From contig JAMOAW010000002.1 in NCBI GenBank assembly GCA_039908535.1, positions 25,462-89,461 of the forward strand: a stretch of DNA of 64,000 nucleotides, read 5' to 3'. Of this stretch, positions 7,097-35,288 are shown one piece after another. The notes beneath the pieces are model-generated. The model had not been told where the DNA came from, ran no database searches, and worked only from the letters and a program-made list of their open reading frames with translations. Positions within the stretch are counted from its first letter, which is position 1; every line of letters starts with the position of its first letter. The translations under genes and the position numbers were made by a program. Source of the stretch: Magnetococcus sp. DMHC-6. Lineage in GTDB: Bacteria > Pseudomonadota > Magnetococcia > Magnetococcales > JADFZT01.

Positions 7097-8278
7097 TCAT
7101 GGTCTGATTTTTTGAAAAGAGGCATCTGGGCGCAACAATCTTCTGGGTAGAGTGGGTAAAATTTGGGTCAGCCAGAGAATGATTTTAAAGGTGCGTCCTT
7201 GGTTGGTAACTTTTATAATGTACAGGGTTAGAAGAGTCATCAGTAGGTTTGGTGACCAGAATCCGATGAGAGGATCCACAGTTTTTTTGTAGGTCATGGC
7301 TTCCCCCAGGCCAAGTAAAAGAAAGTGGAGAATCAAAATGAAAATGGCGATGACAAATCCATAGCCTCGTCCAGAACGGTGCGATTGCTGAATTCCCATG
7401 GGGATGGCCAGTATTCCCAAAATAAAAGTAGCGGCTGGAATGGCCATCCGACGGTGCCACACAATGCGTGCCTCGTGGGAGCGTTCGGAATTTTTATCGT
7501 GGGTGGCCAAGGTGAGTTGTTCGGCGTCGAGTTGTTGGAGCTTTTCTCGTCCTTCTTTAAATTGAATCCCAAGGGTGATGCCCAGATTGAGATCGTAGGA
7601 GTCAAAGTTTAATAATTGAAAATTGCCGTTGCTAAATTTTTGGTGGCGACCGCCATGTTCCAGCAATAGAGCGGTCTCCCCATCAGAAGAAAGATGTAAC
7701 AGGCCCTTTTGCGCCGTAAGGGTAATGGGATTTTTTGGGTCACGGCGGTCATGTACCAACAATCCGTGCAGTTGTTTGCCTTTAGGATCTTGTGCTTGCA
7801 CATAGATGGTAAGATTGGGTATCGTTTGATTGAAGGTTTGTGGTTTAATCGCTAAGGTCGCGGTGGAAATAAGAGCGTTTTTCAATCGAAAAAATTGATA
7901 TGAAGAGAGCGGGGTCGCCACCCATGTCAGCCAGAGAGAGAGAAGTGTCGCGCTGATGACAAGAATTGAAATAGGTCGAACAATCTGGTAAAGACTGGTA
8001 CCACACGCCTGCATGACGACCAGTTCACTGTCTTGGGAGAGACGCCCCAAGGCCATTAAAATTCCAATGAGCAGCGCAATGGGAAGGGTAATCGACAAAA
8101 TTTTTGGAATTAACATCACGGTCATCTCACCGAGAATCACAACAGAGACCCCTTTATTGACCCATAGATCCACCAAATTGAGAACCTGGGGCAATAAAAT
8201 GACAAAAGTCAGCACCCCCACCGCGAGAAGAGTGGAATGGGTGCATTCTTTAAAGAGGTAGCGAGATAGGCATTTCAT
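7097..8278 (-). CDS. lptF: LPS export ABC permease LptF
   Basis: Start chosen at MKCLSRYLFKECTHSTLLAVGVLTFVILLPQV (ATG 8278). The longer ORF reaching 8689 would run antisense through pepA and is low-complexity. Confidence 0.8.
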   Translation of the reverse strand: MKCLSRYLFKECTHSTLLAVGVLTFVILLPQVLNLVDLWVNKGVSVVILGEMTVMLIPKILSITLPIALLIGILMALGRLSQDSELVVMQACGTSLYQIVRPISILVISATLLSLWLTWVATPLSSYQFFRLKNALISTATLAIKPQTFNQTIPNLTIYVQAQDPKGKQLHGLLVHDRRDPKNPITLTAQKGLLHLSSDGETALLLEHGGRHQKFSNGNFQLLNFDSYDLNLGITLGIQFKEGREKLQQLDAEQLTLATHDKNSERSHEARIVWHRRMAIPAATFILGILAIPMGIQQSHRSGRGYGFVIAIFILILHFLLLGLGEAMTYKKTVDPLIGFWSPNLLMTLLTLYIIKVTNQGRTFKIILWLTQILPTLPRRLLRPDASFQKIRP

Positions 8279-8327
8279 TATTTCACATTGTATCAACACC
8301 TGATCCAGTAGGGAACGCTTCCATTGG

Positions 8328-9872
8328 ATGGAGATAAAAAAAATGGCAAAAAGTAAAGATTCTTTGGAGGTAGATTTATATTTTGGCCCCGTTTCTGGAT
8401 GGCGAGGGGATGCCTTGATTGCTGGCATCTTTGAAAATGGCGAACCACAAGCGGCCTTAAAGCAGTGTTCAACCGCGATCAACGAAAAGGTGAAGCGGCT
8501 TATTGAGGCGGGTTGGATGACCGGACGCAGCGGTGAAAGCATGACGGTGGCTTTGGAGGCCGACAGCGGGCTGTTAGCCGCACGGTTGGTTTTGGTGGGT
8601 TTGGGTAAAAAAGAGTCGGTGAGCGCGGAGTCCTTGCGCCTTTTGGGGGGCACTTTGGTGGATTTAGCCCGCAAAACCGGTATCGTCACCGCGTGCTGTT
8701 TGCTTCCTTTGGATAAAATGGGCCATATCGGTCGCCAAAAAGGGGTATGTGCCCTGGCAGAAGGGATCTGGTTGGGAGCATATCGGTTTCAATCCTATCG
8801 TTCGGAAGAGAGTAAAAACAAAGAGCTAAATCCCTTAAAGAGCCTTTTTTTGGCTGCTCTTGAAAAGAGTGCCAGCGTGCGACAAAAATTATTTCGAGTA
8901 GAGCAGACCTGTCGGGGGGTCTATTTGGCCCGAGATTTGTGCAATCATCCCGCCAATGTCGTCACACCAGAATATTTGGCCCAAAGCGCACGGGAAATGG
9001 GAGAACGATTGGGGATAAAAGTGACTGTTTTTTGTGAAAAATCTCTGCAACGCCGCCATATGAATGGCATTTTGGCGGTCGGCAGTGGCAGTGCCAATCC
9101 CCCCCGCTTAATCACCTTGGAGTATCGCAAAGGAGAGAAAAGAGCACCTTTAGTGGTGGTCGGCAAGGCGATCACCTTTGATTCTGGAGGAATTTCCCTT
9201 AAGCCGGCTGAAAATATGGATCAAATGAAAATGGATATGAGCGGTGGGGCAGCGGTGTTGGGATTTATGCAGGCCATCGCCGAAATGGGGTTGGATATCC
9301 ATGTCATTGGTGTGATTCCCGCCGCCGAAAATATGCCTTCCGGCACGGCGCAGCGGCCAGGGGATATCATCCGTTCCGCCAAAGGATTGTATATAGAGGT
9401 CCTCAATACCGATGCCGAGGGTCGCTTGATTTTGGCCGATGCCCTGCATTATGCCGAAAGCTTTGAACCGGGTGCCATCATTGATTTGGCCACTTTGACC
9501 GGTGCTTGTGTCGTGGCTTTGGGGAATGTAACTTCTGGCATGTTAGGCAACAACAAGCCGTTACTCAAGGCGTTGCAGAAAGCGGGAAAACAGTCTGGAG
9601 AAAGGGTCTGGCCCCTGCCAATGTTTGATGAATATCAAGAATTGCTTAAATCAACGGTAGCCGATGTGCGCAATATCGGGGATAAAACCGCTGGAGCCAT
9701 TACAGCAGCCTGTTTTCTTTCGCGATTTATCGAGTCCAATCGCCCTTGGGCCCACATTGATATTGCTGGAACCGCTTGGGACAGCAGCGGCAAGCGTGCC
9801 TATGTTCCCAAGGGTTCAGTGGGGGTCGGAGTGCGCTTGTTGTGTCGTTATGTTTTGAAAAATTTACACTAA
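8328..9872 (+). CDS. pepA: Leucyl aminopeptidase (M17)
   Basis: M17 signature NTDAEGRLILADAL and VGKAITFDSGG. 514 aa (alternative start at 8343). Confidence 0.92.
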   Translation: MEIKKMAKSKDSLEVDLYFGPVSGWRGDALIAGIFENGEPQAALKQCSTAINEKVKRLIEAGWMTGRSGESMTVALEADSGLLAARLVLVGLGKKESVSAESLRLLGGTLVDLARKTGIVTACCLLPLDKMGHIGRQKGVCALAEGIWLGAYRFQSYRSEESKNKELNPLKSLFLAALEKSASVRQKLFRVEQTCRGVYLARDLCNHPANVVTPEYLAQSAREMGERLGIKVTVFCEKSLQRRHMNGILAVGSGSANPPRLITLEYRKGEKRAPLVVVGKAITFDSGGISLKPAENMDQMKMDMSGGAAVLGFMQAIAEMGLDIHVIGVIPAAENMPSGTAQRPGDIIRSAKGLYIEVLNTDAEGRLILADALHYAESFEPGAIIDLATLTGACVVALGNVTSGMLGNNKPLLKALQKAGKQSGERVWPLPMFDEYQELLKSTVADVRNIGDKTAGAITAACFLSRFIESNRPWAHIDIAGTAWDSSGKRAYVPKGSVGVGVRLLCRYVLKNLH

Positions 9873-13017: not shown

Positions 13018-13150
13018 GAACATGATGCCCTGTGGACAAAAAATTAAAATCAAAACCCTGGGGGCAATCCCCCAGACCCCTTTTTTCTTTTAATAAAAAA
13101 AAAGGGTGGGGGTGTTGGGGGCGGTTCTCCGCCCCCAAGGTCTTGAATGC
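13018..13150 (+). repeat. REP/MITE family 2 copy R2
   Basis: GAACATGATGCCCTGTGGAC...CCCTGGGGGCAATCCCCCAGACCCC...GGGGGCGGTTCTCCGCCCCCAAGGTCTTGA, between convergent genes. Confidence 0.85.
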
Positions 13151-13184: not shown

Positions 13185-14051
13185 TCAATATTCAACACGA
13201 CCTATTTTTATGGAACCTACACCTGAGTGATTTGCTATGACAACGTGTTGTGCATCATAAATTTTAATATTACCTGTTCCCTCTGAGCGAATCGTTGCAT
13301 CGACTGAGGTGCCATCAATCATAATATTTCCAGTTCCTTGGAGATCAATCGATAACTTATGAATCTCTCCATGCTCAACTTTTATATCACCTGTTCCATT
13401 AGAAACAATTTTTAGGTCTCCAGTGATGTGACCTATTTGAAGATTGCCTGTTCCTTGCAAGGTAATCTCTCCATCATGCAAGGCTGTAATCTCTACATCT
13501 CCATATCCAAGCATCTCCAGCTTAAAAGGGGCATCTGTCTTATTTATAGCAATTTTGGCACCAAAACTTTTAATGTTGAGTGGGAGTGAACGAGGGGCTA
13601 AAATATGAATTTTAGGAGAGTTTGCTGTAGAATTTTGATCACCAGGAAGGTTAATAGTGCCTATGGATACATTTCCACCACGAACGACAACATTTCCATT
13701 AATCTGCACATTTGAGGAAGTTATTATAGAAGAATTGGAAGATTTACCCATCTCCTTGAGTGTGACTTGCCCGCCTTCAGTATGTGTATGAATAGCGTTA
13801 ATGGCGTTTGTATCCCCTAAAAATTGGAAACGAATATCTTCACGTTGCTCTGTATCTATTTGAATTTGTGCAGATTCAGCCTGAATTTCGAGTTTATTTC
13901 CATTTAGAGTAATATTTTTTTCATCCGCAAAGAGTGGATTATGTAAGAGTGAAAAAAATGTGATAACATTTAATAAAATAAACTTACTTCGTGCAGATAA
14001 ATAAGTCATTAAAAAAAAATTTTTTTGACTTTTTTTGTTAATTTTTTCCAT
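13185..14051 (-). CDS. Secreted DUF2807/GIN-domain beta-helix protein
   Basis: Repeated LQGTGNLQI / SNGTGDIKV / LQGTGNIMI / SEGTGNIKI / HSGVGSIKI rungs. Hydrophobic N-terminus (alternative start ATG 14009). Confidence 0.65.
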   Translation of the reverse strand: MEKINKKSQKNFFLMTYLSARSKFILLNVITFFSLLHNPLFADEKNITLNGNKLEIQAESAQIQIDTEQREDIRFQFLGDTNAINAIHTHTEGGQVTLKEMGKSSNSSIITSSNVQINGNVVVRGGNVSIGTINLPGDQNSTANSPKIHILAPRSLPLNIKSFGAKIAINKTDAPFKLEMLGYGDVEITALHDGEITLQGTGNLQIGHITGDLKIVSNGTGDIKVEHGEIHKLSIDLQGTGNIMIDGTSVDATIRSEGTGNIKIYDAQHVVIANHSGVGSIKIGRVEY

Positions 14052-14103
14052 TTTTTATCTCTATATTTTAATTTTGATTAAATTTGAATAAAACAAAATT
14101 TTT

Positions 14104-14706
14104 CTATTTTACTGATTTATCTGATCCAATTAAGGGAAGATTCGTCTCTTTCAAAACAATTCCTGGTGCAACATGAGATGGGTTAGCAATGTGGGGCACA
14201 GGGGATATTAAAGGTTGCATCATGTATTTTTCACTATTTTCCTTTTTTAACAAATCTTGCATATCTTGTCCAACGATAGCATAAAAATTTTCCATTTCAG
14301 TAAGGATTTCTTTGTCAAAAAATGTTTTTTTGGCCTTTTCAAGCAATTCACCCATAGCATCATAAGCGGCGCGTGCTGCTCGAATATTATTGCGTTTGCG
14401 AGATATGGTGACCAGACCAGATTGCGCTTTGAGTTGATAGGCTAAATCAGCCGTATAAAGAATTTGGTTATAGATCTTTTCTGCATCATCCAGTTGGTTT
14501 TCACGTTCCATAAAATGGCCTAGTTGTAACAGTGTCATACTGTTTTTCGGACAATGATGCATAATTCTATTAAGAAGTTCACGATTTTTAGTGACGCTTA
14601 AGTTTTGTACATCAGGAACTTGAAAACAAGGATCAAAAGCAAAAGCCGTATTCACAATAAAGAACAGAAGGATGCTATTAGCAAATCCACATAATTTCAA
14701 AAACAT
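14104..14706 (-). CDS. Secreted TPR-like protein (paralogue of 14802..15410)
   Basis: Signal peptide ending AFAFDPC. Shared blocks with its neighbour: HHCPKN..LLQLG...E.Q.DDAEKIYN....DL.Y.L.AQ.GL..I.R...IR.A. 200 aa. Confidence 0.6.
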   Translation of the reverse strand: MFLKLCGFANSILLFFIVNTAFAFDPCFQVPDVQNLSVTKNRELLNRIMHHCPKNSMTLLQLGHFMERENQLDDAEKIYNQILYTADLAYQLKAQSGLVTISRKRNNIRAARAAYDAMGELLEKAKKTFFDKEILTEMENFYAIVGQDMQDLLKKENSEKYMMQPLISPVPHIANPSHVAPGIVLKETNLPLIGSDKSVK

Positions 14707-14801
14707 GCTCTATCTTTCGTTATATTTATAATTTCGCATAGGGTCAGCGATTTATAAAGCAAATAAAATGAGGATTTGATTTGTAACAAGACTATAATAT
14801 A

Positions 14802-15410
14802 TTACTTAAAATTAACACCTCCAAAACCAACATCTGACTTATCATCAACTGCAACAGTTCCGATATCAGTTTTATCAGAATATTTATTACTAAATCCACG
14901 TGTATTATTATATGGTTGCAATGTATTTACAGTTCCACGATTTTGTTTCATTCTATCCAAAATATTATGTCTTAATTTTGTATATGTATTCTCAGCTTTA
15001 TTAAGAGCACTCATATTTGAAAAAGATTTCAAATTTTTGGCTTTTTCAATCATGACACCCAAGGCCTCATTGGCCTCTTGAGCTTTACGAATATCACCGC
15101 TTTGACGCGCTATGGAAGCCAATCCAGTTTGAGCCATGAGGCTGTAGCTTAAATCAGGACCCGTAACAACACGGTTATAGACATTTTCTGCTTCTTCTAA
15201 ATTTCCCTCTTGCTCAAACATAAATCCAATTTGAAGTAAAGCTTCCTGATTTTGTGGACAATTATTAATAATTTTAGAGAGTAGGGAGTGGCTTTGAATA
15301 GGAGTTAAACCTTGCTGATTAAATTGATCGTTACAGGGATCAAATGCTAATGCAGAATTAATCATGCAAAAGAAAATGATAAAGCTCATTATTTTGCAAA
15401 AATTATTCAT
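14802..15410 (-). CDS. Secreted TPR-like protein (paralogue of 14104..14706)
   Basis: Signal peptide ending ALAFDPC. Collinear similarity to the previous ORF. 202 aa. Confidence 0.6.
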   Translation of the reverse strand: MNNFCKIMSFIIFFCMINSALAFDPCNDQFNQQGLTPIQSHSLLSKIINNCPQNQEALLQIGFMFEQEGNLEEAENVYNRVVTGPDLSYSLMAQTGLASIARQSGDIRKAQEANEALGVMIEKAKNLKSFSNMSALNKAENTYTKLRHNILDRMKQNRGTVNTLQPYNNTRGFSNKYSDKTDIGTVAVDDKSDVGFGGVNFK

Positions 15411-15441
15411 TTGATTTGACCCCTTTATGTGTTATTGCCGT

Positions 15442-16155
15442 TTATTTATACACATGAAACTCAATTCGGCGGTTTTTTGGATTTTCGGGGTCTAAACCCG
15501 CAATAGGTTTCGTTTTTCCCATACCAACGGGAACCAAACGCCAATCTTCAATGCCATTACGGACCAGATAATCTTTGACCGACATGGCCCTTTGCCAAGA
15601 CAATTGACGATTCATTTCATCATTCCCAACCGCATCCGTGTGTCCTTCAACAATTAAAGTAGAATTTTTTGCAGCTGGTGATTTGAGTGCTTCTGCCATA
15701 GTGTTCAAATAGTCATAGGTTGCAGACGATAAAGCTGCAGAACCACTTTTAAACTGTATCGGAAAGGAGACTCCCCCAGAAGAACCGCGTTCTGACTTCG
15801 TTTGAGATAATTCAGAGGGCACAGCTTGTTTCGCACTCTCTTTCGCACTCTCTTTCGCACTCTCTTTCGCACTCTCTTTCGCACTCTCTTTCGCAACTTC
15901 ATTCGAGGGAGCAGGGGAGGGGGTGGTTTTAAATTGAATAGATCTTGTTTTACGCTCTTTCTTAGGCTCAGAAGAGGGCTCAGAAGGAGGAGTAGCCGCA
16001 GAATCAAATAAAATATTTACCAATTCAGAAGCCTCTGGTGCTTTTTCATAAACTTTGGCATCACTCACATCACCCCCGATAACTAAATTTGGAGATAATA
16101 TAGAAGCACTCAGAACAATTGCGAATGATAATTTTAAAAAATCTTTTTTTATCAT
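15442..16155 (-). CDS. OmpA/MotB-type peptidoglycan-binding protein with (AKES)n linker
   Basis: C-terminal LIVEGHTDAVGNDEMNRQLSWQRAMSVKDYL...RRIEF (OmpA_C). N-terminal signal peptide. Confidence 0.85.
   Translation of the reverse strand: MIKKDFLKLSFAIVLSASILSPNLVIGGDVSDAKVYEKAPEASELVNILFDSAATPPSEPSSEPKKERKTRSIQFKTTPSPAPSNEVAKESAKESAKESAKESAKESAKQAVPSELSQTKSERGSSGGVSFPIQFKSGSAALSSATYDYLNTMAEALKSPAAKNSTLIVEGHTDAVGNDEMNRQLSWQRAMSVKDYLVRNGIEDWRLVPVGMGKTKPIAGLDPENPKNRRIEFHVYK
15833..15895. repeat. 12-bp in-frame tandem repeat GCACTCTCTTTC x5 (+ partial), encoding (AKES)n in the OmpA-like gene
   Basis: Five perfect units read directly at 15833-15892. Confidence 0.9.
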
Positions 16156-16199
16156 CTTTTCCCTCTTGGTATATTGCTAGCAAAAGCATTAAATTTGAA

Positions 16200-17729
16200 T
16201 TATTTAATGGTCAATTGTAATTTTCCATCAACCACTGGAACATTTAAAGCAGAAAATGAACTGCTTATTTTGTTCATATTATATCCCTGAATGACTTCAA
16301 GATCAGCACCCGATATCACGCTCGGCAATTTGTTCGTCACATCTGTTGTTGCAGCAAAACATTGAATCGTTTCTACCGAGTTTGGATAATCAAAAACAAT
16401 ACTAAATGGCATATTACCATCTGGAAGTTCAATTCCGCCCTGCTTAAGAAGAGCATTTTGGTTAAATCGATTAGGAAAAATTTTAATGACAGAATGATTC
16501 CCTTGCTCCCAAAAGCAATAGGTATATGCATTCTCCGTTAGGTTTAGAGAGATGATCATACTCTCGCCCACTTTATATTCTTTTTTGGGTGAAGATAATA
16601 AAATTTGTAAATTTGTACTTGTTGCTTGATTGCCTCCTCTGGCTTCAATTTCACGGACAATTTTAATGTGTTTAGCAATATTGTCCGCAATAGGTATGTT
16701 TAAATATGCCTGAAGCCAAATATTCGACGGAACATTATCCAATGAATTGGCTGTGTAGTGTATATTTTGTTTCTTGAAAATCACATTAACAGCATCTATA
16801 GCCTTAGAAGAATTTCGTGGATATTCGTCTTGAAAATATCCATATGCACCCAATATTAAGTCACCGATAGCCGCCGATCCATCCTCATTGATACTGTCTT
16901 CAATTTGACGAACCAACCTTTTATCAGGTTCAGATCCTGGTATAAGACGCCAATAGGGTACAGCAAACTGTCGTCCTAATAGTTGTACAACACTTACTTC
17001 TACAAGTTGTCGGATGGCCGCATGTACACCTTGTGACTTACTGGCACTGCCAGACATTCCAATCCCAGATCCAAAAATAGAAAATGACCAACCGGATGAT
17101 TTACTCTCTTTTTTAATATTAATCGTATTGGAGGTAAGGGCTCCAAGGGAGGTTTGGGAAACATAGTCCAACATGCTAAAATCAATGGTCATACGTGATT
17201 CATTAAAATCGTTATCATTAGACGTCCCTGCATCTACAGAAGAATTCCCAATAGGTATAGAAATATCCATATCTTTTGAGGTGCCTTTTGTAGAAACATC
17301 TTTATCAAATTCAGTAATTGCACCACTAATAACAAAATTGGGGATTTTGGTAAGCCGAATGCCTTGGCGAATGTTGATTTCATTGCTCATATATTGAGGA
17401 TCGTAAGGAACATTGACAATAGGCATCCCAATCTTATTGACTGCCGTCGTAACCATGCGCGTAATATCACTAGGCAATCCAGCACCGGCCGTATCATTGT
17501 TAATGGGTTTTATCTGAAAGTACATGGGATTAGATGATGAGCGTCCTGTGTACGTCCGCAAAAGTTTACCAAAATTGTATATTACTTCATCGTAATCTGT
17601 TTGACGGGTTGTTACGGCTTCCGTTTCTTTCATTTCAATCACTGGCGCATCTGTGGCACAACCCGTTAATCCCAGCGGATAGACTCCTAAAATGGCAACC
17701 AGATGAAATAATCTCCAATTTTTTTTCAT
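16200..17729 (-). CDS. Outer-membrane lipoprotein, CsgG/HfaB-like N-terminal domain fused to C-terminal DUF4384
   Basis: Lipobox LGLTGC. IKPINNDTAGAGLPSDITRMVTTAVNKIG and FVISGAITEFDKD resemble CsgG-family blocks. The C-terminal KVGESMIISLNL..AYTYCFWEQGNHSVIKIFPNRFN fits the DUF4384 pattern. Confidence 0.6.
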   Translation of the reverse strand: MKKNWRLFHLVAILGVYPLGLTGCATDAPVIEMKETEAVTTRQTDYDEVIYNFGKLLRTYTGRSSSNPMYFQIKPINNDTAGAGLPSDITRMVTTAVNKIGMPIVNVPYDPQYMSNEINIRQGIRLTKIPNFVISGAITEFDKDVSTKGTSKDMDISIPIGNSSVDAGTSNDNDFNESRMTIDFSMLDYVSQTSLGALTSNTINIKKESKSSGWSFSIFGSGIGMSGSASKSQGVHAAIRQLVEVSVVQLLGRQFAVPYWRLIPGSEPDKRLVRQIEDSINEDGSAAIGDLILGAYGYFQDEYPRNSSKAIDAVNVIFKKQNIHYTANSLDNVPSNIWLQAYLNIPIADNIAKHIKIVREIEARGGNQATSTNLQILLSSPKKEYKVGESMIISLNLTENAYTYCFWEQGNHSVIKIFPNRFNQNALLKQGGIELPDGNMPFSIVFDYPNSVETIQCFAATTDVTNKLPSVISGADLEVIQGYNMNKISSSFSALNVPVVDGKLQLTIK

Positions 17730-18151
17730 TTTACTTCGATTCCTTGCGTATGAACGGTCGTATTGATCTTTTTATTACGAATGTTGGTCCCTTTAAGAAC
17801 ATCCACCTGTCCTACATTAACATCAGGGTCTTCACCAGCAAGTTTGTTTATTTTTATTTCTTTATTGGTATCTACATAGTTGACAATTTTCTTTTTATTG
17901 TTATTATTATCAATTGTTTGGTTGCAAAGATTGTATGTCTTACCACCTGCCTGTTTTGTTTGACGTATTTGCTCATTTATTTCTTTGTCATCGCAGTACT
18001 GATAGGATGTATCCCCATAAGCACCCGAATTTTTTTGCATCTCTTCGCGTTGCTTAATCAAATTACCTTGTAATGAGCCAGCCAAGAGAGATCCAGACGT
18101 AAGCACGATGACACTCAATATTGTAGCAAATTGAACAAAAATTTTTTGCAT
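17726..18151 (-). CDS. Small secreted protein, translationally coupled to the CsgG-like gene
   Basis: 141 aa with a signal peptide (..LLAGSLQG). Its stop overlaps the downstream ATG (ATGA at 17726-17729). The C-terminal VNVGQVDVLKGTNIRNKKINTTV resembles the repeat of the four small paralogues. Confidence 0.6.
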   Translation of the reverse strand: MQKIFVQFATILSVIVLTSGSLLAGSLQGNLIKQREEMQKNSGAYGDTSYQYCDDKEINEQIRQTKQAGGKTYNLCNQTIDNNNNKKKIVNYVDTNKEIKINKLAGEDPDVNVGQVDVLKGTNIRNKKINTTVHTQGIEVK

Positions 18152-18229
18152 TTAGGTATCCCCATACACGCCAGAAAGTAACTTTTGAGATTTATATCCC
18201 AATAGTTAAACATAATATCACATGTAAGA

Positions 18230-18544
18230 TTAGTGAATCTTTACGCTACCAACATTCACTTGAGATTTACCAGAACTCGTGATATCGCCTGTCTCAGATT
18301 CTGTTTTAATCTCACTGTTTTGCATCTTTGTTCCTCGACCAATATCGACACTGGATGCATTAACCGTTGAAGTGTCAGAAGCTTTAATATTGCCGGTTTT
18401 CGCACTTGTCTCGATTCTGCTGTTCTGAATTGTCGTACCTGGACCAGAATTACTCTCTTCGCTTAACGATGTAAGACTTCCAGCACATAAAGGATTCATG
18501 ACAGCAAAAACAGCTACCAATGTAATGGCAGATACCAATTTCAT
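18230..18544 (-). CDS. Small secreted two-repeat protein, paralogue 1
   Basis: Signal peptide, then two ~33-aa repeats TTIQNSRIETSAKTGNIKASDTSTVNASSVDIGRG / TKMQNSEIKTESETGDITSSGKSQVNVGSVKIH. Confidence 0.7.
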   Translation of the reverse strand: MKLVSAITLVAVFAVMNPLCAGSLTSLSEESNSGPGTTIQNSRIETSAKTGNIKASDTSTVNASSVDIGRGTKMQNSEIKTESETGDITSSGKSQVNVGSVKIH

Positions 18545-18663
18545 GTGAAAACTCCTTATTCTGTTTGGAGGATGAATAGTAGAATATATATTAAATAAAA
18601 ATCATGTATAAAATATACAATCTTTACGCCAATAAATTGGCGTAAAGATTGTTCATTGATTGA

Positions 18664-18972
18664 TTATTGAATCTTGACACCACCCGCATTGACTTCTGAC
18701 TTATCAGAAGCTTTGATATTGCCAGTATCTGAACTGGCTTTGATTTCAGAGTTTTGAATCGTGGTGCCACGTCCAATCTCAACAGTGGCTGCTCCGACTT
18801 TGGATTCGTCTGAAGCTTCAATGTTGCCAGTTTTGGCATCGGTAGTAATTTTGGTATTCTGAATCGTGGTCTCTTTGCCACCACTACTAATGGCCGTTAT
18901 GCTGTCCGCAGAGGCAGAACCAATGACAACAAAAAGAGATGTAACAAAAGCAATGGCTGATAACGTTTTCAT
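18664..18972 (-). CDS. Small secreted two-repeat protein, paralogue 2
   Basis: MKTLSAIAF... start (ATG 18972). Repeats TTIQNTKITTDAKTGNIEASDESKVGAATVEIGRG / TTIQNSEIKASSDTGNIKASDKSEVNAGGVKIQ. Near-identical at DNA level to paralogue 3. Confidence 0.7.
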   Translation of the reverse strand: MKTLSAIAFVTSLFVVIGSASADSITAISSGGKETTIQNTKITTDAKTGNIEASDESKVGAATVEIGRGTTIQNSEIKASSDTGNIKASDKSEVNAGGVKIQ

Positions 18973-19113
18973 TTCGTTGCGTACTCCCCACAAAGATAGA
19001 TAATTTGTTGCTTCAACATTTACTACATGACAAAAAAATATTCATTCATCTAATTCAAATAAAGATTATATTTCATACACTGAAAGTCAGCGTATGAAAT
19101 ATATTATATTTGA

Positions 19114-19425
19114 TTATTGAATTTTGACACTACCAGCATCAACTTCTGACTTATCAGAAGCATTGATATTTCCGGTATCTGATTTGGCCTTTATTTCAGA
19201 ATTTTGAATTGTCGTGCCACGTCCAATCTCAACAGTGGCTGCTCCGACTTTGGATTCGTCCGAAGCTTCAATATTTCCAGTTTTGGCATCGGTAGTAATT
19301 TTGGTATTCTGAATCGTGGTCTCTTTGCCGCCACCACTACTAATTGCAGTTATGCTGTCTGCAGAAGCAGAGCCGATGACAACAAAAAAAGATGCTGCAA
19401 AAGCAATTATTGGAAACTTTCTCAT
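19114..19425 (-). CDS. Small secreted two-repeat protein, paralogue 3
   Basis: 103 aa with the same architecture. Long stretches are identical to 18664..18972. Confidence 0.7.
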   Translation of the reverse strand: MRKFPIIAFAASFFVVIGSASADSITAISSGGGKETTIQNTKITTDAKTGNIEASDESKVGAATVEIGRGTTIQNSEIKAKSDTGNINASDKSEVDAGSVKIQ

Positions 19426-19601
19426 TTTGTTTTGTACTCCTTTGAAGAAGGAAAGGAACGATAGTTTGTAAATATAATTATATTACATCATAAGTATAGC
19501 ATACATTGTGTTGCGATGTCAAGATCGTTTTTAATTTGATTAATATATTTAATTATATATTTAATTTTTTTAAAATAATTATATTAATATAAAATATAAT
19601 C

Positions 19602-19750
19602 CGAACGATGCCCTGCGGAAAAAAAATCAAATGCCAAACCCTGGGGGATGAATCCCCCAGACCCCCTCTTTTTTTTAAAACTTAAAAAAAAGAGGGGGTC
19701 TGGGGGGCAGTTCTCCGCCCCCCAAAGGTCTTGATTTTTTCCGATACATT
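19602..19750 (+). repeat. REP/MITE family 2 copy R3
   Basis: CGAACGATGCCCTGCGG...CCCTGGGGGATGAATCCCCCAGACCCCCTC T-run / A-run GAGGGGGTCTGGGGGGCAGTTCTCCGCCCCCC...CCGATACAT. Confidence 0.85.
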
Positions 19751-19759
19751 AAAATTTGA

Positions 19760-20068
19760 TTATTTAATCTTTACACCACCAGCATCAACATCTGAATTTC
19801 TTAATGCTTTAATATTTCCTGTATCAGAGGTTGTCTTAATATCTGAGTTTTGAATTTTTGTGCCACGTCCAACTTCAACGATAGCCGCTCCAACTGTGGA
19901 ATTGTCTGCACCTTCAATATTACCGGTTTTAGCCTCTGTATTCAAAGTAGAATTCTGGATCGTGGTTGTATCGGTTGAACCACCTGAACTAAGTGCAGTT
20001 AGACTATTAGAAAAGGCCGATGTTATAAAAATAAAAGTAGAAACAACGAATGCAAATAATGAGAACAT
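19760..20068 (-). CDS. Small secreted two-repeat protein, paralogue 4 (5' end abuts or overlaps a REP copy)
   Basis: MFSLFAFVVSTFIFITSAFS..., then TTIQNSTLNTEAKTGNIEGADNSTVGAAIVEVGRG / TKIQNSDIKTTSDTGNIKALRNSDVDAGGVKIK. ATG 20068..20066 lies inside the GAACAT terminus of REP R4. Confidence 0.6.
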   Translation of the reverse strand: MFSLFAFVVSTFIFITSAFSNSLTALSSGGSTDTTTIQNSTLNTEAKTGNIEGADNSTVGAAIVEVGRGTKIQNSDIKTTSDTGNIKALRNSDVDAGGVKIK

Positions 20069-20223
20069 AATGCCCTGCGGGAAAAAAAAATCAAATGCCA
20101 AACCCTGGGGGATGAATCCCCCAGACCCCCTCTTTTTTTTAAAACTTAAAAAAAAAGGGTGGGGGGAATTGGGGGGTGGCTCTGCCCACCCAAAGGTCTT
20201 GATTTTATTTTTCCAATACATAA
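20063..20223 (+). repeat. REP/MITE family 2 copy R4
   Basis: Full-length copy GAACATAATGCCCTGCGGG...CCAATACAT. Confidence 0.85.
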
Positions 20224-20250
20224 ATATTTTCATTCCATACTCCATAATAT

Positions 20251-20375
20251 GAACATAATGCCATTCGGGCAGAAAATAAAAAACAAAAAACTGAGGATTG
20301 AATCCCCAGACTCCCTCTTTTTTTAAATATTAAAAGAAAAGGGTAGGGGATTGAGGGGAGCAGTTCTTCTCTGAT
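20251..20375 (+). repeat. REP/MITE family 2 copy R5 (diverged), tandem to R4
   Basis: GAACATAATGCCATTCGGGCAG...CTGAGGATTGAATCCCCAGACTCCCTC.... It ends just before the caspase gene stop. Confidence 0.7.
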
Positions 20376-20383
20376 TGATAAGC

Positions 20384-22882
20384 TTATTCTTTAACTACCT
20401 GAAAATCCATCCCAGTGGAATTAAAGACAGGTGTTTGGTCATCTGTTTTATATTTATATACCAACAAAGGGACTTCTTGATGCATGTAGGTCAGTAATTC
20501 TTTGACAAAAATTGTCCCGTCTTCAGGTTTTTTGTCGGCTTGACCATCTAAACCAGTCAATATCGAATAGGTAAATATACCGTGTCCTAGCTCTGTCAAC
20601 TCATTAGCAGCTTGATTCCCCGTGGTGGCCGTCGCAATATGAATTCCTGTTGCACGCGCCAATTTTGCCATAGAACGTTGCTTATCAAAACTGGCAAACG
20701 CAGGCAAAGCTGAACCAGAGTAACACGCATCAATAAGGAGTAAAATTTTTTGCGCACCTATGTGGGCGATATATGATTTGAGTTCATCTGATGAAAGACC
20801 TTGCGTAGTAACAGATTTTTCCTCACCATCAAAATTGGTTGGAATAAAATACCAACGATTATTCATAGACACACCATGTCCTGCAAAATATAAAACAACC
20901 GTATCTTCAGGGGGAATGCGTTGTAGAGAATCCAAAGAAGTTTCAATCTGCTTTTTGGTCGCTTTTTGGTCGTAAATTTCGTATGTTGTTATATTATTGA
21001 AAACATTTATATATTTTTTTAAGAAAAAATCAAGAACGCCTTTGGCATCTAACACAGAAAAATCAAGATTCATTTCTTGAATTTGGTATTGATTGATCCC
21101 TACAACAAAAATATGCAATTTTGGTTTTATAGAAGCTTGGGTGACAGAGTCACCACCCGTAGGTGGTGATGCCACTTCTGTAGACGCAGATTTGGCATCT
21201 GGTGCTGTCGGTCTCTGGTTGGATTTTTCATCTTTGAGCTGATAGGATAATTTTTCTTCAATCGGTTCGCTCTCTATAAGATCTTTACTTAAACCAACTG
21301 TTTTTAGTACATTTTGTCCATTTACCAATTCGACACGATAAACCGTCTTTAACATTTCACCACTATCTTCAGTCAGATTTTCAGATGAAATAATTCGGCT
21401 TTTATCAATAATTTTTTGATTATGAAATAATCGGATCTCTTGAATTCCGCCGCCCTGATCCAGAGCATCAATACTCACATCCACCTCTTTAGAATAGCCG
21501 TTGGCATCAGGATTAACTGGTTTGATGATCATTTTAGGAGGCAGATAAAAACCATCGGATACCACCGGGACAACCGTGTTTTCTACAACATCTTTTTTTG
21601 CGAGAAGTTTACCAAGTAGGGCAGGGCGATAATAATTTTCAAGAAAGCCATCTAAAGCGAAAGAGTGTTGATCGCCTGCCCATTGAATGGCATCTAAACG
21701 ATCTTCAATGGCACCGTCTAAGGTTCCATCAAAATAGCCTTCTGGTGTGACAACCGCCCATCCCTCTTGCATAGAAACCAGACGTGCGATCTCCTTACCC
21801 GTTTCTTGATTCCAAACACGAAGCGTTTGGTCTGTTCCACCAGAGATCAACCAATCCTTCCCAGAGGCAAAAGTGACTGCATTGACCCCTTTTTGATGTC
21901 CCTCTAGGCGACGTATTTCGCGTCCATCGGAAACATTCCAAATGCGAAGGGTTTTATCCTGGCTGGCAGTGGCGAGGAAACGATGGTCTTGCGTAAAAGC
22001 CACTCCATTCACTTTTTCTTCATGCCCCGTGAATGTGGCCAATTTAGAACCGTCTGCAGGGTTCCAGAGATATGCTTGACCATCCTCGTGTCCTGTCACC
22101 AAAAATCGACCATCTGATGACCAAGCAATGCACAGAACAGCTCCTGTCGAAGCGTTCCATTCTAGAATAGGTTTTCCATCCATGGACCAAATTTGCACAC
22201 GACCATCTGATCCCGCCGTTGCCAATGATTGATTATCAGGAGCAAGGACCAAACCGTTTATTTGTTTTTCATGCGTTTGGATTGTTGACAATGGAGAAGC
22301 TGTTCTGAGATCCCAAATGCGTAGGGTGCCATCTAGGCTGGAGGTAATCAGTCGTTTTCCGTCGCGGGTAGGAGCCACACCCGTCACACTTCCGGTGTGA
22401 CCACGAAACGTAAGGAGGGTTTCTCTGGTCTCCATACGCCATAAACGCGCCGTACCATCCTCACTCCCAGTCACCAAAAAAGCTTTGCCAGCAGGGGCCA
22501 TCGACAAATTTTTTGGTAAAGGCGTTCCAAAAAACTCTTCCAAATTTTCAACAAAGGCCACACTGCGTACAGGCTGATTATGACCTGTGAGATTGACCTC
22601 TCTCTGACCATTATCAACATTCCAAACTTGAACTGCATGATTGCCGCTGGCACTTGCAAACCAAGTACCATCAGGACTAACAGCCACATCGTTGATGGCA
22701 GAACTATATCGAGATTGAATTTTAAACGTGGGTTTAAAAATTTGTCGTGTGTTTTTTTGTATCGCTTTGACAATGGTTTTGCTGGAATTGAACATGGCTG
22801 GACGGCTCTCGGCTGGTTGGCTGAAAAAGAGCAATCCTGTCAAAATAGATATGAAGCAAAGGTAGACCAAAAAGCGTTTCAT
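20384..22882 (-). CDS. Exported WD40-repeat protein with C-terminal caspase-like (peptidase C14) domain
   Basis: Signal peptide. Multiple WD40 blades (..H..V..VAF.PDG..L.T.S.DGT.R.W..). C14 dyad contexts VVLYFAGHGV (His) and KILLLIDACYSGS (Cys). 832 aa. Confidence 0.85.
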   Translation of the reverse strand: MKRFLVYLCFISILTGLLFFSQPAESRPAMFNSSKTIVKAIQKNTRQIFKPTFKIQSRYSSAINDVAVSPDGTWFASASGNHAVQVWNVDNGQREVNLTGHNQPVRSVAFVENLEEFFGTPLPKNLSMAPAGKAFLVTGSEDGTARLWRMETRETLLTFRGHTGSVTGVAPTRDGKRLITSSLDGTLRIWDLRTASPLSTIQTHEKQINGLVLAPDNQSLATAGSDGRVQIWSMDGKPILEWNASTGAVLCIAWSSDGRFLVTGHEDGQAYLWNPADGSKLATFTGHEEKVNGVAFTQDHRFLATASQDKTLRIWNVSDGREIRRLEGHQKGVNAVTFASGKDWLISGGTDQTLRVWNQETGKEIARLVSMQEGWAVVTPEGYFDGTLDGAIEDRLDAIQWAGDQHSFALDGFLENYYRPALLGKLLAKKDVVENTVVPVVSDGFYLPPKMIIKPVNPDANGYSKEVDVSIDALDQGGGIQEIRLFHNQKIIDKSRIISSENLTEDSGEMLKTVYRVELVNGQNVLKTVGLSKDLIESEPIEEKLSYQLKDEKSNQRPTAPDAKSASTEVASPPTGGDSVTQASIKPKLHIFVVGINQYQIQEMNLDFSVLDAKGVLDFFLKKYINVFNNITTYEIYDQKATKKQIETSLDSLQRIPPEDTVVLYFAGHGVSMNNRWYFIPTNFDGEEKSVTTQGLSSDELKSYIAHIGAQKILLLIDACYSGSALPAFASFDKQRSMAKLARATGIHIATATTGNQAANELTELGHGIFTYSILTGLDGQADKKPEDGTIFVKELLTYMHQEVPLLVYKYKTDDQTPVFNSTGMDFQVVKE

Positions 22883-22965
22883 GGTTTTGTTAGCTTCCCC
22901 CCATAAAAAGAATCTTTATCTTTAATAAAATATTAAAAAAAATTTTTTTTGTCAAGAATATTTAC

Positions 22966-23838
22966 TTAATTTTTAAAATTTTTTATTAAATCAAAATTTG
23001 CATGTATTTTAGAAAGAATTCGGGGCCACTCCTTTACCCAGCAACATTGATGATCAAAACTGGCGATAACACGTACTGAAATGGTTTTTGGGTCAGCAAA
23101 TTTATTTTGAAATGCATACGTCACTTCAGGAGGTACAATACGGTCCTGTGCTCCAATAAAATGAATTTGCGGTATATGTTGTAATGTCGAGGTATCCTCT
23201 GCTGGATCAAGGGAATCTGGCATACTAGAAACTCCGTGCCATTTGGTCCACATAGCGACATCTAAATTGGCGGCGATGGTCAATAACCAAGCAATATCCT
23301 TGCGCTCCCTCGCAATCAAGGTCGCCACAGTACCTCCTCCAGAATAACCAACCAGAGCAATGGAATCCGTTTTTGTTTGGGCTTTGACAACATCAATAAC
23401 CCTTGCCATAGCCACAATCACCTCCTGCGAATAACGGTGAGAAGTCCAATAGCGAACATCACACTCTTTTGAAATATTATCAACAAATTGACAAGGTCTA
23501 CTCACATATAAAACCTTGGATGAGGGATCCTGAAGAGCCAATTTTAAAGCAATCGGATTGGTCGGAGAGGGATTTTTTGAAGGTGTCCTTTGATTTAGCC
23601 AAGCCCTCCCATCGCCTTCAATGTAAACAACGAGTAAATCACTTGGTTCTTTTAAAATACGCAAAAAACCTCGTAGATGAAAAAAACCTGTTTCCCATTC
23701 TACCGATGAAAATCCACTGTGCTGTGCTAATTCAGAGGCTTCTTGCCATCGCACCATCCAAGAAGGGGTGCAACTCACGCCCCATATGCTGCATAAACAG
23801 TATATAAAAATTTTTCGCCATTTGTTAGAAAAATACAT
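22966..23838 (-). CDS. Alpha/beta-fold hydrolase, probable lipoprotein
   Basis: N-terminal signal with ..WGVSC. Nucleophile elbow LVGYSGGG. 290 aa. Confidence 0.6.
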   Translation of the reverse strand: MYFSNKWRKIFIYCLCSIWGVSCTPSWMVRWQEASELAQHSGFSSVEWETGFFHLRGFLRILKEPSDLLVVYIEGDGRAWLNQRTPSKNPSPTNPIALKLALQDPSSKVLYVSRPCQFVDNISKECDVRYWTSHRYSQEVIVAMARVIDVVKAQTKTDSIALVGYSGGGTVATLIARERKDIAWLLTIAANLDVAMWTKWHGVSSMPDSLDPAEDTSTLQHIPQIHFIGAQDRIVPPEVTYAFQNKFADPKTISVRVIASFDHQCCWVKEWPRILSKIHANFDLIKNFKN

Positions 23839-24051
23839 TATTTAAATCCTGATTTTCCCCAAATATTTTTTGTTTAATTTTTTTTATTCCAAAATCATGA
23901 CGTACAATTTTTTTAAAAAAACTTAACATATCTTGACATTTATATCAATATTTGATAAATTCTATATAAACATAAAGAAAAAAAATAAAAAGATGGCGTT
24001 TCTGACGCAATTAGGGTGAACGATTCTTCAATAATATGGAAGGATAGTGCT

Positions 24052-24990
24052 ATGTTTAAATATAAAATTTTATTTTTATCTATTTTTTTTGTTGTATTAA
24101 CTCTCTCCATGACGGTTCATGCGGCACCTACTCCTGTAGAATTATTAATGCAGGTAAAAGGAGATGTTTTCTACAGTCATGAGGGGGGAGAATGGAAAGC
24201 CGTCCACCGTAATAAATATCTATTTCCTGGCGATCAGATTAAAACTGAAAATGGGGGATCTGGTCGTCTTATTAACCAAAAGAAACAACAGTACCGCACC
24301 TTAGGTCCCAATACCCTTCTTAAAATTAACGATGACCAAGCCTCGTTGGTCTCTGGGACTTCCCTTTCAGATTTTCAAGCCTTAGATGAACTCTCAAGCT
24401 CAGTCACCAATTTGTTTTCCAATTCACAAATGTATACCACAAAACGACGCAGTATCTTACACAAAGAGACGATCCATTTGGAAACCATCCAAAAAATAAC
24501 TTTGTCCAATACATATCCAGAGTTAATTTGGGAAGAGCTCGGCCCACAATACAGCTACCGATTAACCATAGATGATCATAGTGTCGATATCCATGGAACA
24601 AACAATGAAATCGTCCGATATAAAATTTCCGAACTTTCGCCCGGAGAACATCCATACAAGGTGGAACTCTTGAAAGATGGCAAGGTGATCGAAAGCCCAA
24701 AAAAAGCAACAGTCATTCGTTGGCTATCTCATGATGAGATGGAAATCATCTCTCAAGAAATGGAAAAAATTCGGCATTTAATCCCAGATGACGATTTAAT
24801 CCTGGCCAGTTATTTGGAAGAAAAAGGGTTGGCTGTCGCGGCTATGGACATGTACCAAAAATATTTCAAAGAAAATCCTGAGGACGTGGATATGCGTCCT
24901 ATGATGATTCAATCTTATTATAACCTAAAATTGACCAATCTAAGGAAAAAAGAGATGATCAATTTTAGCTCGAGTGAAAGTGGAAAATAA
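24052..24990 (+). CDS. Secreted protein with FecR-like N-terminal domain
   Basis: MFKYKILFLSIFFVVLTLSMTVHA signal. VKGDVFYSHEGGEWKAV..NKYLFPGDQIKTENGGSGRL resembles the FecR domain pattern. The ORF maximum starts at 24016. Confidence 0.5.
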   Translation: MFKYKILFLSIFFVVLTLSMTVHAAPTPVELLMQVKGDVFYSHEGGEWKAVHRNKYLFPGDQIKTENGGSGRLINQKKQQYRTLGPNTLLKINDDQASLVSGTSLSDFQALDELSSSVTNLFSNSQMYTTKRRSILHKETIHLETIQKITLSNTYPELIWEELGPQYSYRLTIDDHSVDIHGTNNEIVRYKISELSPGEHPYKVELLKDGKVIESPKKATVIRWLSHDEMEIISQEMEKIRHLIPDDDLILASYLEEKGLAVAAMDMYQKYFKENPEDVDMRPMMIQSYYNLKLTNLRKKEMINFSSSESGK

Positions 24991-35127: not shown

Positions 35128-35288
35128 GAACATGATGCCCTTCGGGCAGAAAAAATCAAAGGCCAAACCCTGGGGGATGAATCCCCCAGACCCCCTCTTT
35201 TTTTTAAAAATCAAAAGAAAAGGGTGGGGGGAATTGGGGGGCGGTTCTCCGCCCCCCAAGGTCTTGATTTTTGTCTTTCCGATACATA
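35128..35288 (+). repeat. REP/MITE family 2 copy R6 (full length)
   Basis: GAACATGATGCCCTTCGGGCAG...CCGATACAT, directly downstream of the flagellin gene. Confidence 0.85.

Follow-up and report, generated by a model that had tools for sequence, protein, structure and literature searches.

Four exported paralogues in an operon-like locus

Magnetococcus sp. DMHC-6 is an uncultivated freshwater magnetotactic coccus known as a metagenome-assembled genome (MAG) (PMC11950176). The analysis of 64,000 nucleotides of this genome (contig JAMOAW010000002.1, positions 25,462 to 89,461; this whole stretch is called the window and its numbering is used below) revealed an operon-like locus of ~10.6 kb at 13185-23838, in which all genes lie on the minus strand and code for exported proteins. 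Read from 23838 to 13185, they encode an alpha/beta-hydrolase, a WD40-caspase protein, four small paralogues (p4, p3, p2 and p1), a 141-aa protein, a 509-aa lipoprotein, an OmpA-family protein, two TPR-like proteins and a DUF2807 protein. Export signals, either signal-peptide-like or of the lipoprotein type, were present on every product read by eye, a reading from which the alpha/beta-hydrolase was excepted. The four paralogues share this operon with a distant relative of the curli channel protein CsgG, and for this reason they probably serve as subunits of a putative curli-like surface fibre, rare and so far undescribed.

A preliminary description had placed four tandem paralogous genes for secreted-type proteins at 18230-20068, and all four minus-strand open reading frames (ORFs) were indeed located there: p1 at 18230..18544 (104 aa; NCBI H7832_00730), p2 at 18664..18972 (102 aa; H7832_00735), p3 at 19114..19425 (103 aa; H7832_00740) and p4 at 19760..20068 (102 aa). 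The p2 entry in the ORF list begins at a TTG codon at 18993, and it is the ATG start that gives 102 aa. For p4 the ORF list contained a 161-aa frame (19760-20245), whose extension through an intergenic element resembling a miniature inverted-repeat transposable element (MITE) is an artefact; the internal ATG was used instead. This gene is preceded by a weak sequence resembling a ribosome-binding site only and is absent from the annotated proteins retrieved, where p1-p3 have NCBI entries. The four proteins align end to end with a mean column identity of 75% and 41 invariant columns, p1 being the most divergent copy. The dN/dS values of all six pairs fall between 0.16 and 0.36, so that the genes are under purifying selection and truly code for proteins.

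Each subunit consists of a signal-peptide-like N-terminus, the segment S(L/I)TA(L/I)SSGG and two repeats, R1 and R2. Inspection of the signal region by eye identified a K/R-containing n-region (missing in p4), a hydrophobic core of 14-17 residues and an A-x-A-type c-region, as in MKTLSAIAFVTSLFVVIGSASA/DS, where the slash marks the putative cleavage point. The two imperfect repeats proposed earlier for each mature protein were confirmed, R1 (TTIQN...GRG) being 35 aa and R2 (TxIQNS...VKI[QHK]) 33 aa long. A profile hidden Markov model (HMM) of the single unit found two domains in p1 (E 1.4e-32), 18 of 33 positions are identical between R1 and R2 of p2, and BLOSUM62 autocorrelation of the p2 repeat domain was 2.58 at lag 35 and no higher than 0.32 at every other lag. 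The internal repeat is far above chance. A sub-repeat of half this period (~17 aa), which would mean two turns per unit, gave no autocorrelation signal; a unit may be one large rung or two unlike turns. The mature domain contains no F, W, Y or C and no Pro except a single one in p1; it is slightly acidic and 45-55% of it is T, S, N, Q or G.

The DNA of p2 and p3 is 88% identical and includes exact runs of 53 and 47 nt. The long identical stretches noted in the preliminary description are therefore real, and of the two origins it offered for them, recent duplication or gene conversion, the second is favoured. The flanks of the two genes do not align, and differences number 8/142 in a central tract over R1, picked post hoc after the data had been seen, against 28/167 outside it (Fisher p = 0.002). 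These patchy differences and unaligned flanks point to gene conversion or to an old duplication with local homogenisation, which would appear to fit better than recent duplication of the whole segment.

The subunit could not be assigned to any named family, as had been noted from the sequence at the outset: Pfam and NCBIfam contained no significant match to p1-p4, and PDB chain sequences gave no match. The family is very rare. A word-indexed search of 5.8e9 proteins returned 5 relatives with p2 alone and 10 with the family profile, and an exhaustive HMMER search over 1.84e9 cluster representatives returned just 26 proteins at E <= 1e-3. No plasmid-borne relatives were found, and a metagenome scan with the subunit profile gave no confirmed match.

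The relatives differ in size and in the number of units. Many of them are long proteins in which a two-unit module lies at the extreme C-terminus, after Lys/Pro-rich linkers, so that subunits of 96-105 aa occur alongside module-bearing proteins of 130-377 aa. In the homologues the 34-35-aa unit is repeated in tandem 2, about 5 (L012, 194 aa) or 7 times (L005, L010 and L011, 263-268 aa; L numbers denote the loci described below), and its period stays at 34-35 aa, in the proteins of the window as well as in relatives with 5-7 repeats. The existence of 5-7-unit chains implies that units stack on units, and a protein with two units would consequently have two unsatisfied stacking ends.

Structure prediction for p2 with AlphaFold2 (AF2) gave a disordered segment at residues 1-31, with a predicted local distance difference test (pLDDT) score <50, and an all-beta domain at residues 35-101, in which the means of 10-residue blocks are 87-93 from residue 41 onwards. 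The same five short strands are predicted in each unit. The repeats had been compared earlier with strand-turn-strand units; a unit of 34-35 aa with five predicted short strands does not agree with a strand-turn-strand of 19-23 aa. None of the Foldseek matches of the model is significant; all are to beta-solenoids, among them ice-binding proteins, LbH enzymes and the HELLF amyloid.

Sequence relationships with known amyloids were also examined. The Pfam profile search suggested in the preliminary description was run, and Curlin_rpt (signature S/N-X5-Q-X-G-X-X-N-X-A-X3-Q, with a QX10Q kernel) gave no match at E <= 1 to any of p1-p4. Comparison of the family profile with E. coli CsgA and CsgB by hhalign gave probabilities of 0.6% and 0.9%, and the PDB profile search with the subunit did not retrieve CsgA. 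The Curlin_rpt and hhalign negatives rule out curlin homology of the subunit. The likeness to HET-s, where meant as homology, did not survive either: HET-s_218-289 (PF11558) matched p1 only, with E 0.76 and 10.3 bits against a cutoff of 32.2, which is noise. A relationship with the neighbouring DUF2807 protein was rejected as well (hhalign probability 0.7%).

The CsgG-like lipoprotein and the conserved triad

The 509-aa lipoprotein is encoded at 16200..17729, two genes downstream of the subunit genes. It has an LTGC lipobox and, at the N-terminus, a CsgG-like domain, which a helical linker joins to DUF4384 (E 1e-12) at the C-terminus. Its AF2 model has a pLDDT of 72.9, and the top 15 Foldseek matches in the PDB were all CsgG (4uv2, 4uv3, 6lqh), with E values from 6e-6 to 1e-3, probability 1.0 and template-modelling scores on the target of 0.36-0.47. 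A profile of 11 members of the lipoprotein family aligned by hhalign with residues 9-259 of the 277 residues of E. coli CsgG over 217 columns (E 3.3e-6, probability 88%), with the lipobox Cys and a G(S/A)I(T/I)x(F/Y)(D/E) motif in register. Pfam CsgG was found below threshold in 7 of the 11 homologues. Judged by its modelled fold and by this alignment, the lipoprotein is a distant relative of CsgG, and we propose that it is the outer-membrane secretion channel. The pore of CsgG itself is an oligomeric (nonameric) beta-barrel to which each protomer contributes two transmembrane hairpins. Regions aligned with these hairpins are present in the lipoprotein and contain, by eye, alternating hydrophobic residues (DMDISIPI, WSFSIF); they were modelled at pLDDT <50, as is expected for prediction of a monomer, and the pore is therefore putative.

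The 141-aa protein (17726..18151) is the second conserved component. It is exported, carries an N-terminal K(N/Q)R..Q....Y.Y..D.(D/E)I motif and has a beta-rich C-terminus. The stop codon of its gene overlaps the start of the channel gene. An assignment to the CsgF or CsgE family was rejected, as hhalign probabilities were 0.3% and 0.1%, respectively. Its C-terminus bears a weak likeness to a rung of the subunit (hhalign E 0.0039, probability 8.7%; unit HMM E 2.4).

Loci were gathered from genomes and metagenomes starting from the subunit and the lipoprotein, the channel profile being the one that worked in the metagenome scan, and their ORFs were scanned with three HMMs (single unit, 141-aa family and channel). 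The triad of a repeat subunit, a 141-aa-family protein and a CsgG-like gene was found in 15 of the 17 distinct loci whose upstream DNA was long enough. In 13 of these 15, HMM support was significant for subunit and 141-aa protein alike; both were weak in L013, and the 141-aa match was weak in L017/18. The hosts include Magnetococcales (the window and L001), Sulfurimonas and other Campylobacterota (L004/8, L005, L010, L011, L019 and L020), a Verrucomicrobia MAG (L012) and, with the weak matches mentioned, Ca. Moduliflexus (L013); L007, L016, L017, L025 and L028 are on unassigned contigs. In L016 the order hydrolase-caspase-subunit-141-channel-TPR-OmpA mirrors that of the window: the hydrolase genes, orthologues with 37% identity, precede the caspase gene in both, and the two caspases have homologous domains. 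The DUF2807 protein is kept in L001 and L007. Translational coupling to the channel gene and universal co-inheritance make the 141-aa protein the strongest candidate for an adaptor or nucleator bound to the channel, one that would combine the roles of CsgF and CsgB.

In two unrelated loci (L003:172-774 and L017:3402-4151) a regulator of the LuxR/GerE family is encoded directly upstream of the subunit gene. The two comprise a response regulator and a LuxR of the autoinducer-binding type; the arrangement recalls that of CsgD upstream of csgBAC.

Proposed assembly and competing explanations

The odds lean slightly towards a curli-like, type-VIII-style secretion and assembly system in which p1-p4 are the major subunits, unrelated to curlin. 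What the analysis established is the repeat architecture, the purifying selection, the fold and profile match of the lipoprotein to CsgG, the synteny of the triad across phyla, the variable repeat number and the predicted all-beta domain. Passage of the subunits through the channel and their polymerisation are inferred, as are the functions given to the 141-aa protein, to the C-terminal modules and to the protease. In such a system the subunit would cross the inner membrane via Sec by means of its signal peptide, remain unfolded in the periplasm and pass the outer membrane through an oligomeric pore of the CsgG-like lipoprotein. Outside the cell, the two 34-35-aa units would pack against one another to form a minimal beta-solenoid without caps, and solenoids would stack end-to-end into a fibre or surface layer. 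The 141-aa protein may serve as the adaptor or nucleator at the channel; proteins with the repeat module at the extreme C-terminus may co-assemble, anchoring or decorating the polymer; and a link between the apparatus and peptidoglycan would be provided by the OmpA-like protein. The exported caspase/CHAT protease could act on the system by processing, release or regulation, perhaps docking via the DUF4384 domain of the channel.

A number of observations weigh against this proposal. The Pfam CsgG score of the lipoprotein (19.1 bits) lies below the gathering threshold of 20.8, and phmmer and hmmsearch with it found no match among PDB sequences. The low-confidence part of its model (residues 145-175) is the putative transmembrane hairpin region, the loop aligned with the CsgG constriction is ~10 residues shorter, and the CsgG-like fold occurs also in non-secretory lipoproteins, which appear lower in the Foldseek list (FlgT, PelC, GNA1162). 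No equivalents of CsgE, CsgF or CsgC/H were detectable by Pfam and NCBIfam across the locus or, for CsgE and CsgF, by hhalign. The multiple sequence alignment behind the AF2 model of the subunit held 11 sequences, so the model could be over-confident, and Foldseek detected no significant structural neighbour for it (best E 2.3). For self-assembly of the subunit the support is indirect, consisting of the predicted uncapped two-unit solenoid and the natural 5-7-unit concatemers. Finally, the likeness of the 141-aa and TPR-like tails to the subunit is not significant in the window.

The system is best compared with curli. The curli repeat is a strand-arc-strand of 23 +/- 5 aa, and CsgA is predicted by AF2 to be a beta-solenoid with a disordered N22 segment (PMC10192328). 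Shared features are small Sec-dependent subunits with imperfect Q/N/G/S/T-rich beta repeats and a disordered N-terminal segment, a repeat number that differs among lineages, an outer-membrane lipoprotein of the CsgG fold in the gene cluster, and AF2 models in which both CsgA (PMC10192328) and the present subunit are uncapped beta-solenoids. In contrast to curli, the repeat described here has 34-35 aa and about five predicted strands, the subunit has neither Curlin_rpt nor similarity to CsgA/B, CsgE/F/C homologues were not detected in the locus, and the channel has an extra helical region, DUF4384 and a shorter equivalent of the constriction loop. The accessory proteins differ too, being the 141-aa family, TPR-like, OmpA-like and DUF2807 proteins and a caspase/CHAT protease. 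The curlin-like character suggested in the preliminary description therefore stands as a functional analogy, strengthened by the CsgG-like lipoprotein and the synteny, and fails as homology.

A precedent for a CsgG-type channel with a cargo other than curli is HfaA/HfaB/HfaD, the holdfast anchor of Caulobacter. In this bacterium, the CsgG-like lipoprotein HfaB is needed for surface localisation of HfaA, a small amyloid-like protein that forms heat- and SDS-resistant multimers (PMC6707917). Unlike the present subunit, HfaA is curlin-like by description, and no holdfast polysaccharide genes lie near the locus studied here.

The Streptomyces chaplins offer a parallel in gene content: several small secreted amyloid-type paralogues occur beside longer module-bearing proteins with an anchoring region, much as the 96-105-aa subunits here coexist with the 130-377-aa C-terminal-module proteins. 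The sequences are unrelated, however, no sortase signal is present, and the host is Gram-negative with an outer-membrane channel.

The prion-forming domains HET-s(218-289) and HELLF of fungi resemble the subunit in having two pseudo-repeats with a period of ~35-36 residues, which would give an open-ended two-rung solenoid driving polymerisation, and in a motif borne also by partner proteins. There is no sequence relationship, as shown by the Pfam value given above and by Foldseek (HELLF, 6eka, E 5.2). HET-s is cytoplasmic, whereas the present proteins are exported. In HET-s 21 ordered residues are accompanied by a flexible linker; in the present subunit, conservation and predicted beta structure extend over the whole unit of 35 residues.

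A stronger form of the proposal can be put forward tentatively and is the less probable one: that the locus represents an undescribed class of extracellular beta-solenoid polymer, with minimal two-rung subunits (34-35 aa per rung), a divergent CsgG-type pore, HET-s-like stacking at open ends, accessory proteins whose C-terminal module would template, anchor or decorate the fibre, and control of assembly or release by an exported caspase or CHAT protease coupled through DUF4384. In the more modest, curli-like reading the channel is of the known CsgG type, and the subunit family and accessory set are new. The literature searches made here returned no description of this system.

The fibre proposal has to be weighed against the view that the small proteins are exported, natively folded beta-helices that do not polymerise. 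They could act as surface adhesins, as matrix or ion/mineral binders, or as plugs or cofactors of the CsgG-like lipoprotein, with multiple copies providing dosage or variation. The confidently predicted monomer fold agrees with this view; homologues with 5-7 units could be stable monomeric solenoids, and the weak Foldseek matches include monomeric beta-helices (ice-binding proteins and LbH enzymes), all non-significant. However, a two-unit solenoid with neither caps nor an aromatic core is unlikely to be stable alone, the module recurs at the very C-terminal end of long, unrelated proteins, which suggests that they have an interface for assembly in common, and the genes are tightly linked to a CsgG-type channel. 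We regard non-polymerising proteins as unlikely.

The position of the protease genes raises another alternative. The WD40-caspase gene (20384..22882), directly upstream of the subunit genes, codes for 832 aa that comprise a signal peptide, a WD40 propeller of seven blades and, at the C-terminus, a caspase (C14) domain in which the AGHG and DACYSG motifs are intact. Exported proteases of clan CD, either caspase or CHAT, are encoded beside the CsgG-like/DUF4384 gene at 8 distinct loci (window 20384-22882, L016:5943-7307, L004:8077-11529 (L004/8), L019:8053-10773, L020:3406-6114, L009:3233-4120, L013:9198-12212 and L027:902-2902) and are fused to WD40, TPR or Pro-rich regions. In the literature DUF4384 is known essentially only as an orthocaspase partner (PMC7475262, PMC8283722), and we found no paper linking it to CsgG. 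The recurrent protease and the DUF4384 domain on the channel argue for a functional link.

It could be supposed that the caspase is the centre of an envelope signalling or cell-death module, in which the repeats are prion-like templates (as in HET-s/NWD2 or BASS) or protease substrates, DUF4384 is a docking domain and the CsgG-like protein is an effector pore, not a fibre exporter. The adjacency of the protease genes in the 8 loci and the literature on DUF4384 are compatible with this, as are the sensor-type WD40/TPR repeats fused to the proteases and the repeat modules found at the ends of various proteins, TPR and FecR-like ones among them, which echo amyloid-signalling architectures. Yet about half of the triad loci (e.g. 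L001, L005, L010, L011 and L012) have no protease nearby, the family shows no conserved basic cleavage site, and every component carries a signal peptide, unlike those of cytoplasmic NLR/amyloid signalling. PADLOC gave only generic WD40, caspase and OmpA/MotB domain matches and no match for the subunit, 141-aa, channel, TPR-like, DUF2807 or hydrolase proteins. Such a module is improbable, and membership in a known anti-phage defence system was rejected on the PADLOC result.

The remaining alternative, that the tandem paralogues with their Gly-Gly motif are bacteriocins or toxin-like peptides, can be largely dismissed: the genes are small, tandem and divergent, each product has ...SSGG after the signal sequence and the GC content is island-like (38% vs 44.7%), but ordinary Sec-type signal peptides and not double-glycine leaders precede the GG, relatives do not conserve this segment, the locus proteins include no C39 peptidase/ABC exporter, immunity gene or modification enzyme, and an all-beta internal-repeat architecture with 5-7-repeat homologues does not fit bacteriocins.

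One subunit-like unit forms the end of each of two FecR-domain proteins encoded 3′ of the CHAT gene (L004:11541-12284 and L019:10776-11522; E 4e-4 and 1.5e-3 with the unit HMM), a hint that a trans-envelope signalling protein may be tethered to the putative polymer.

If the proposal of a curli-like fibre is correct, the CsgG-type strategy of secreting unfolded subunits and polymerising them outside has been adopted at least once more, with a wholly different repeat. Under the stronger form of the proposal, the locus would add one more independent system of functional-amyloid type to those known from Gram-negative bacteria (curli, Fap and Hfa), and the first one tied to a caspase-family protease. 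A curli-like fibre would point to an undescribed surface structure in uncultivated magnetotactic cocci and sulfur-oxidising Campylobacterota. The subunit, with its ~70 structured residues and no aromatics or cysteines, would be a tractable model for nucleation and elongation of an uncapped beta-solenoid and a compact scaffold for engineered living materials, and the recurrent link between a DUF4384 channel and an exported caspase or CHAT protease offers a testable function for two poorly understood bacterial components.

Other genes and sequence features

Analysis of the non-coding sequence identified a sigma-70-like promoter match on the minus strand at 19493..19522 (TTGACA-18-TGnTATACT, 11/12; a consensus match only), ~68 nt upstream of the p3 start codon, which is the best such match within 13-23 kb. 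Terminator- or attenuator-like hairpins with T-runs are located on the same strand directly 3′ of p3 (19067..19103, 17-bp stem) and p2 (18617..18652, 16-bp stem). A strong promoter-like site of their own and putative hairpin terminators are what would be expected for genes of abundant structural subunits. The p1 gene lies 78 nt upstream of the 141-aa gene, and no terminator was predicted between them, so that p1 through the DUF2807 gene are probably transcribed together. A search of the leaders against Rfam revealed no riboswitch or known RNA, the only hits being sub-threshold hairpin matches on MITE-like elements.

The GC content of the locus is 38.1% compared with 44.7% in the rest of the window and 50-54% in the neighbouring ispD/ispF genes. 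Horizontal acquisition of the locus is suggested by this difference and by its patchy occurrence in four phyla.

Downstream of the channel gene, also on the minus strand, are genes for a 237-aa exported OmpA-family peptidoglycan-binding protein (15442..16155), an exported 202-aa TPR-like protein (14802..15410) and its exported 200-aa paralogue (14104..14706; E 1.6e-33 between the two), and, as the final gene of the locus, a 288-aa DUF2807 (GIN-domain beta-helix) protein (13185..14051). In the OmpA-like gene, a 12-nt tandem repeat at 15817-15912 encodes an (AKES)n linker between the signal peptide and the OmpA domain. The tail of the 202-aa protein, ...DKSDVGFGGVNFK, resembles the end of the subunit at a level that is not significant (unit HMM E 0.18). 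At the other end of the locus the gene at 22966..23838 encodes the 290-aa alpha/beta-hydrolase.

At least five copies of a ~115-nt palindromic element of the MITE or repetitive extragenic palindromic type were found, at 13024-13136, 19607-19722, 20071-20189, 20257-20373 and ~35156-35198. The element consists of a G/C-rich hairpin, CTGGGGGAT..ATCCCCCAG, with A/T runs on both sides. Copies bracket p4, and the locus is also delimited by a copy on its 3′ side.

Adjoining the locus, the plus strand at 24016-24990 encodes a homologue of MtxA, a magnetotaxis protein (domains MtxA_IG-like, MtxA_C and DUF7354), with no evident link to the putative fibre genes. Elsewhere in the window, long ORFs of 530 and 514 aa (7097-8689 on the minus strand and 8328-9872 on the plus strand) overlap on opposite strands by ~360 nt.

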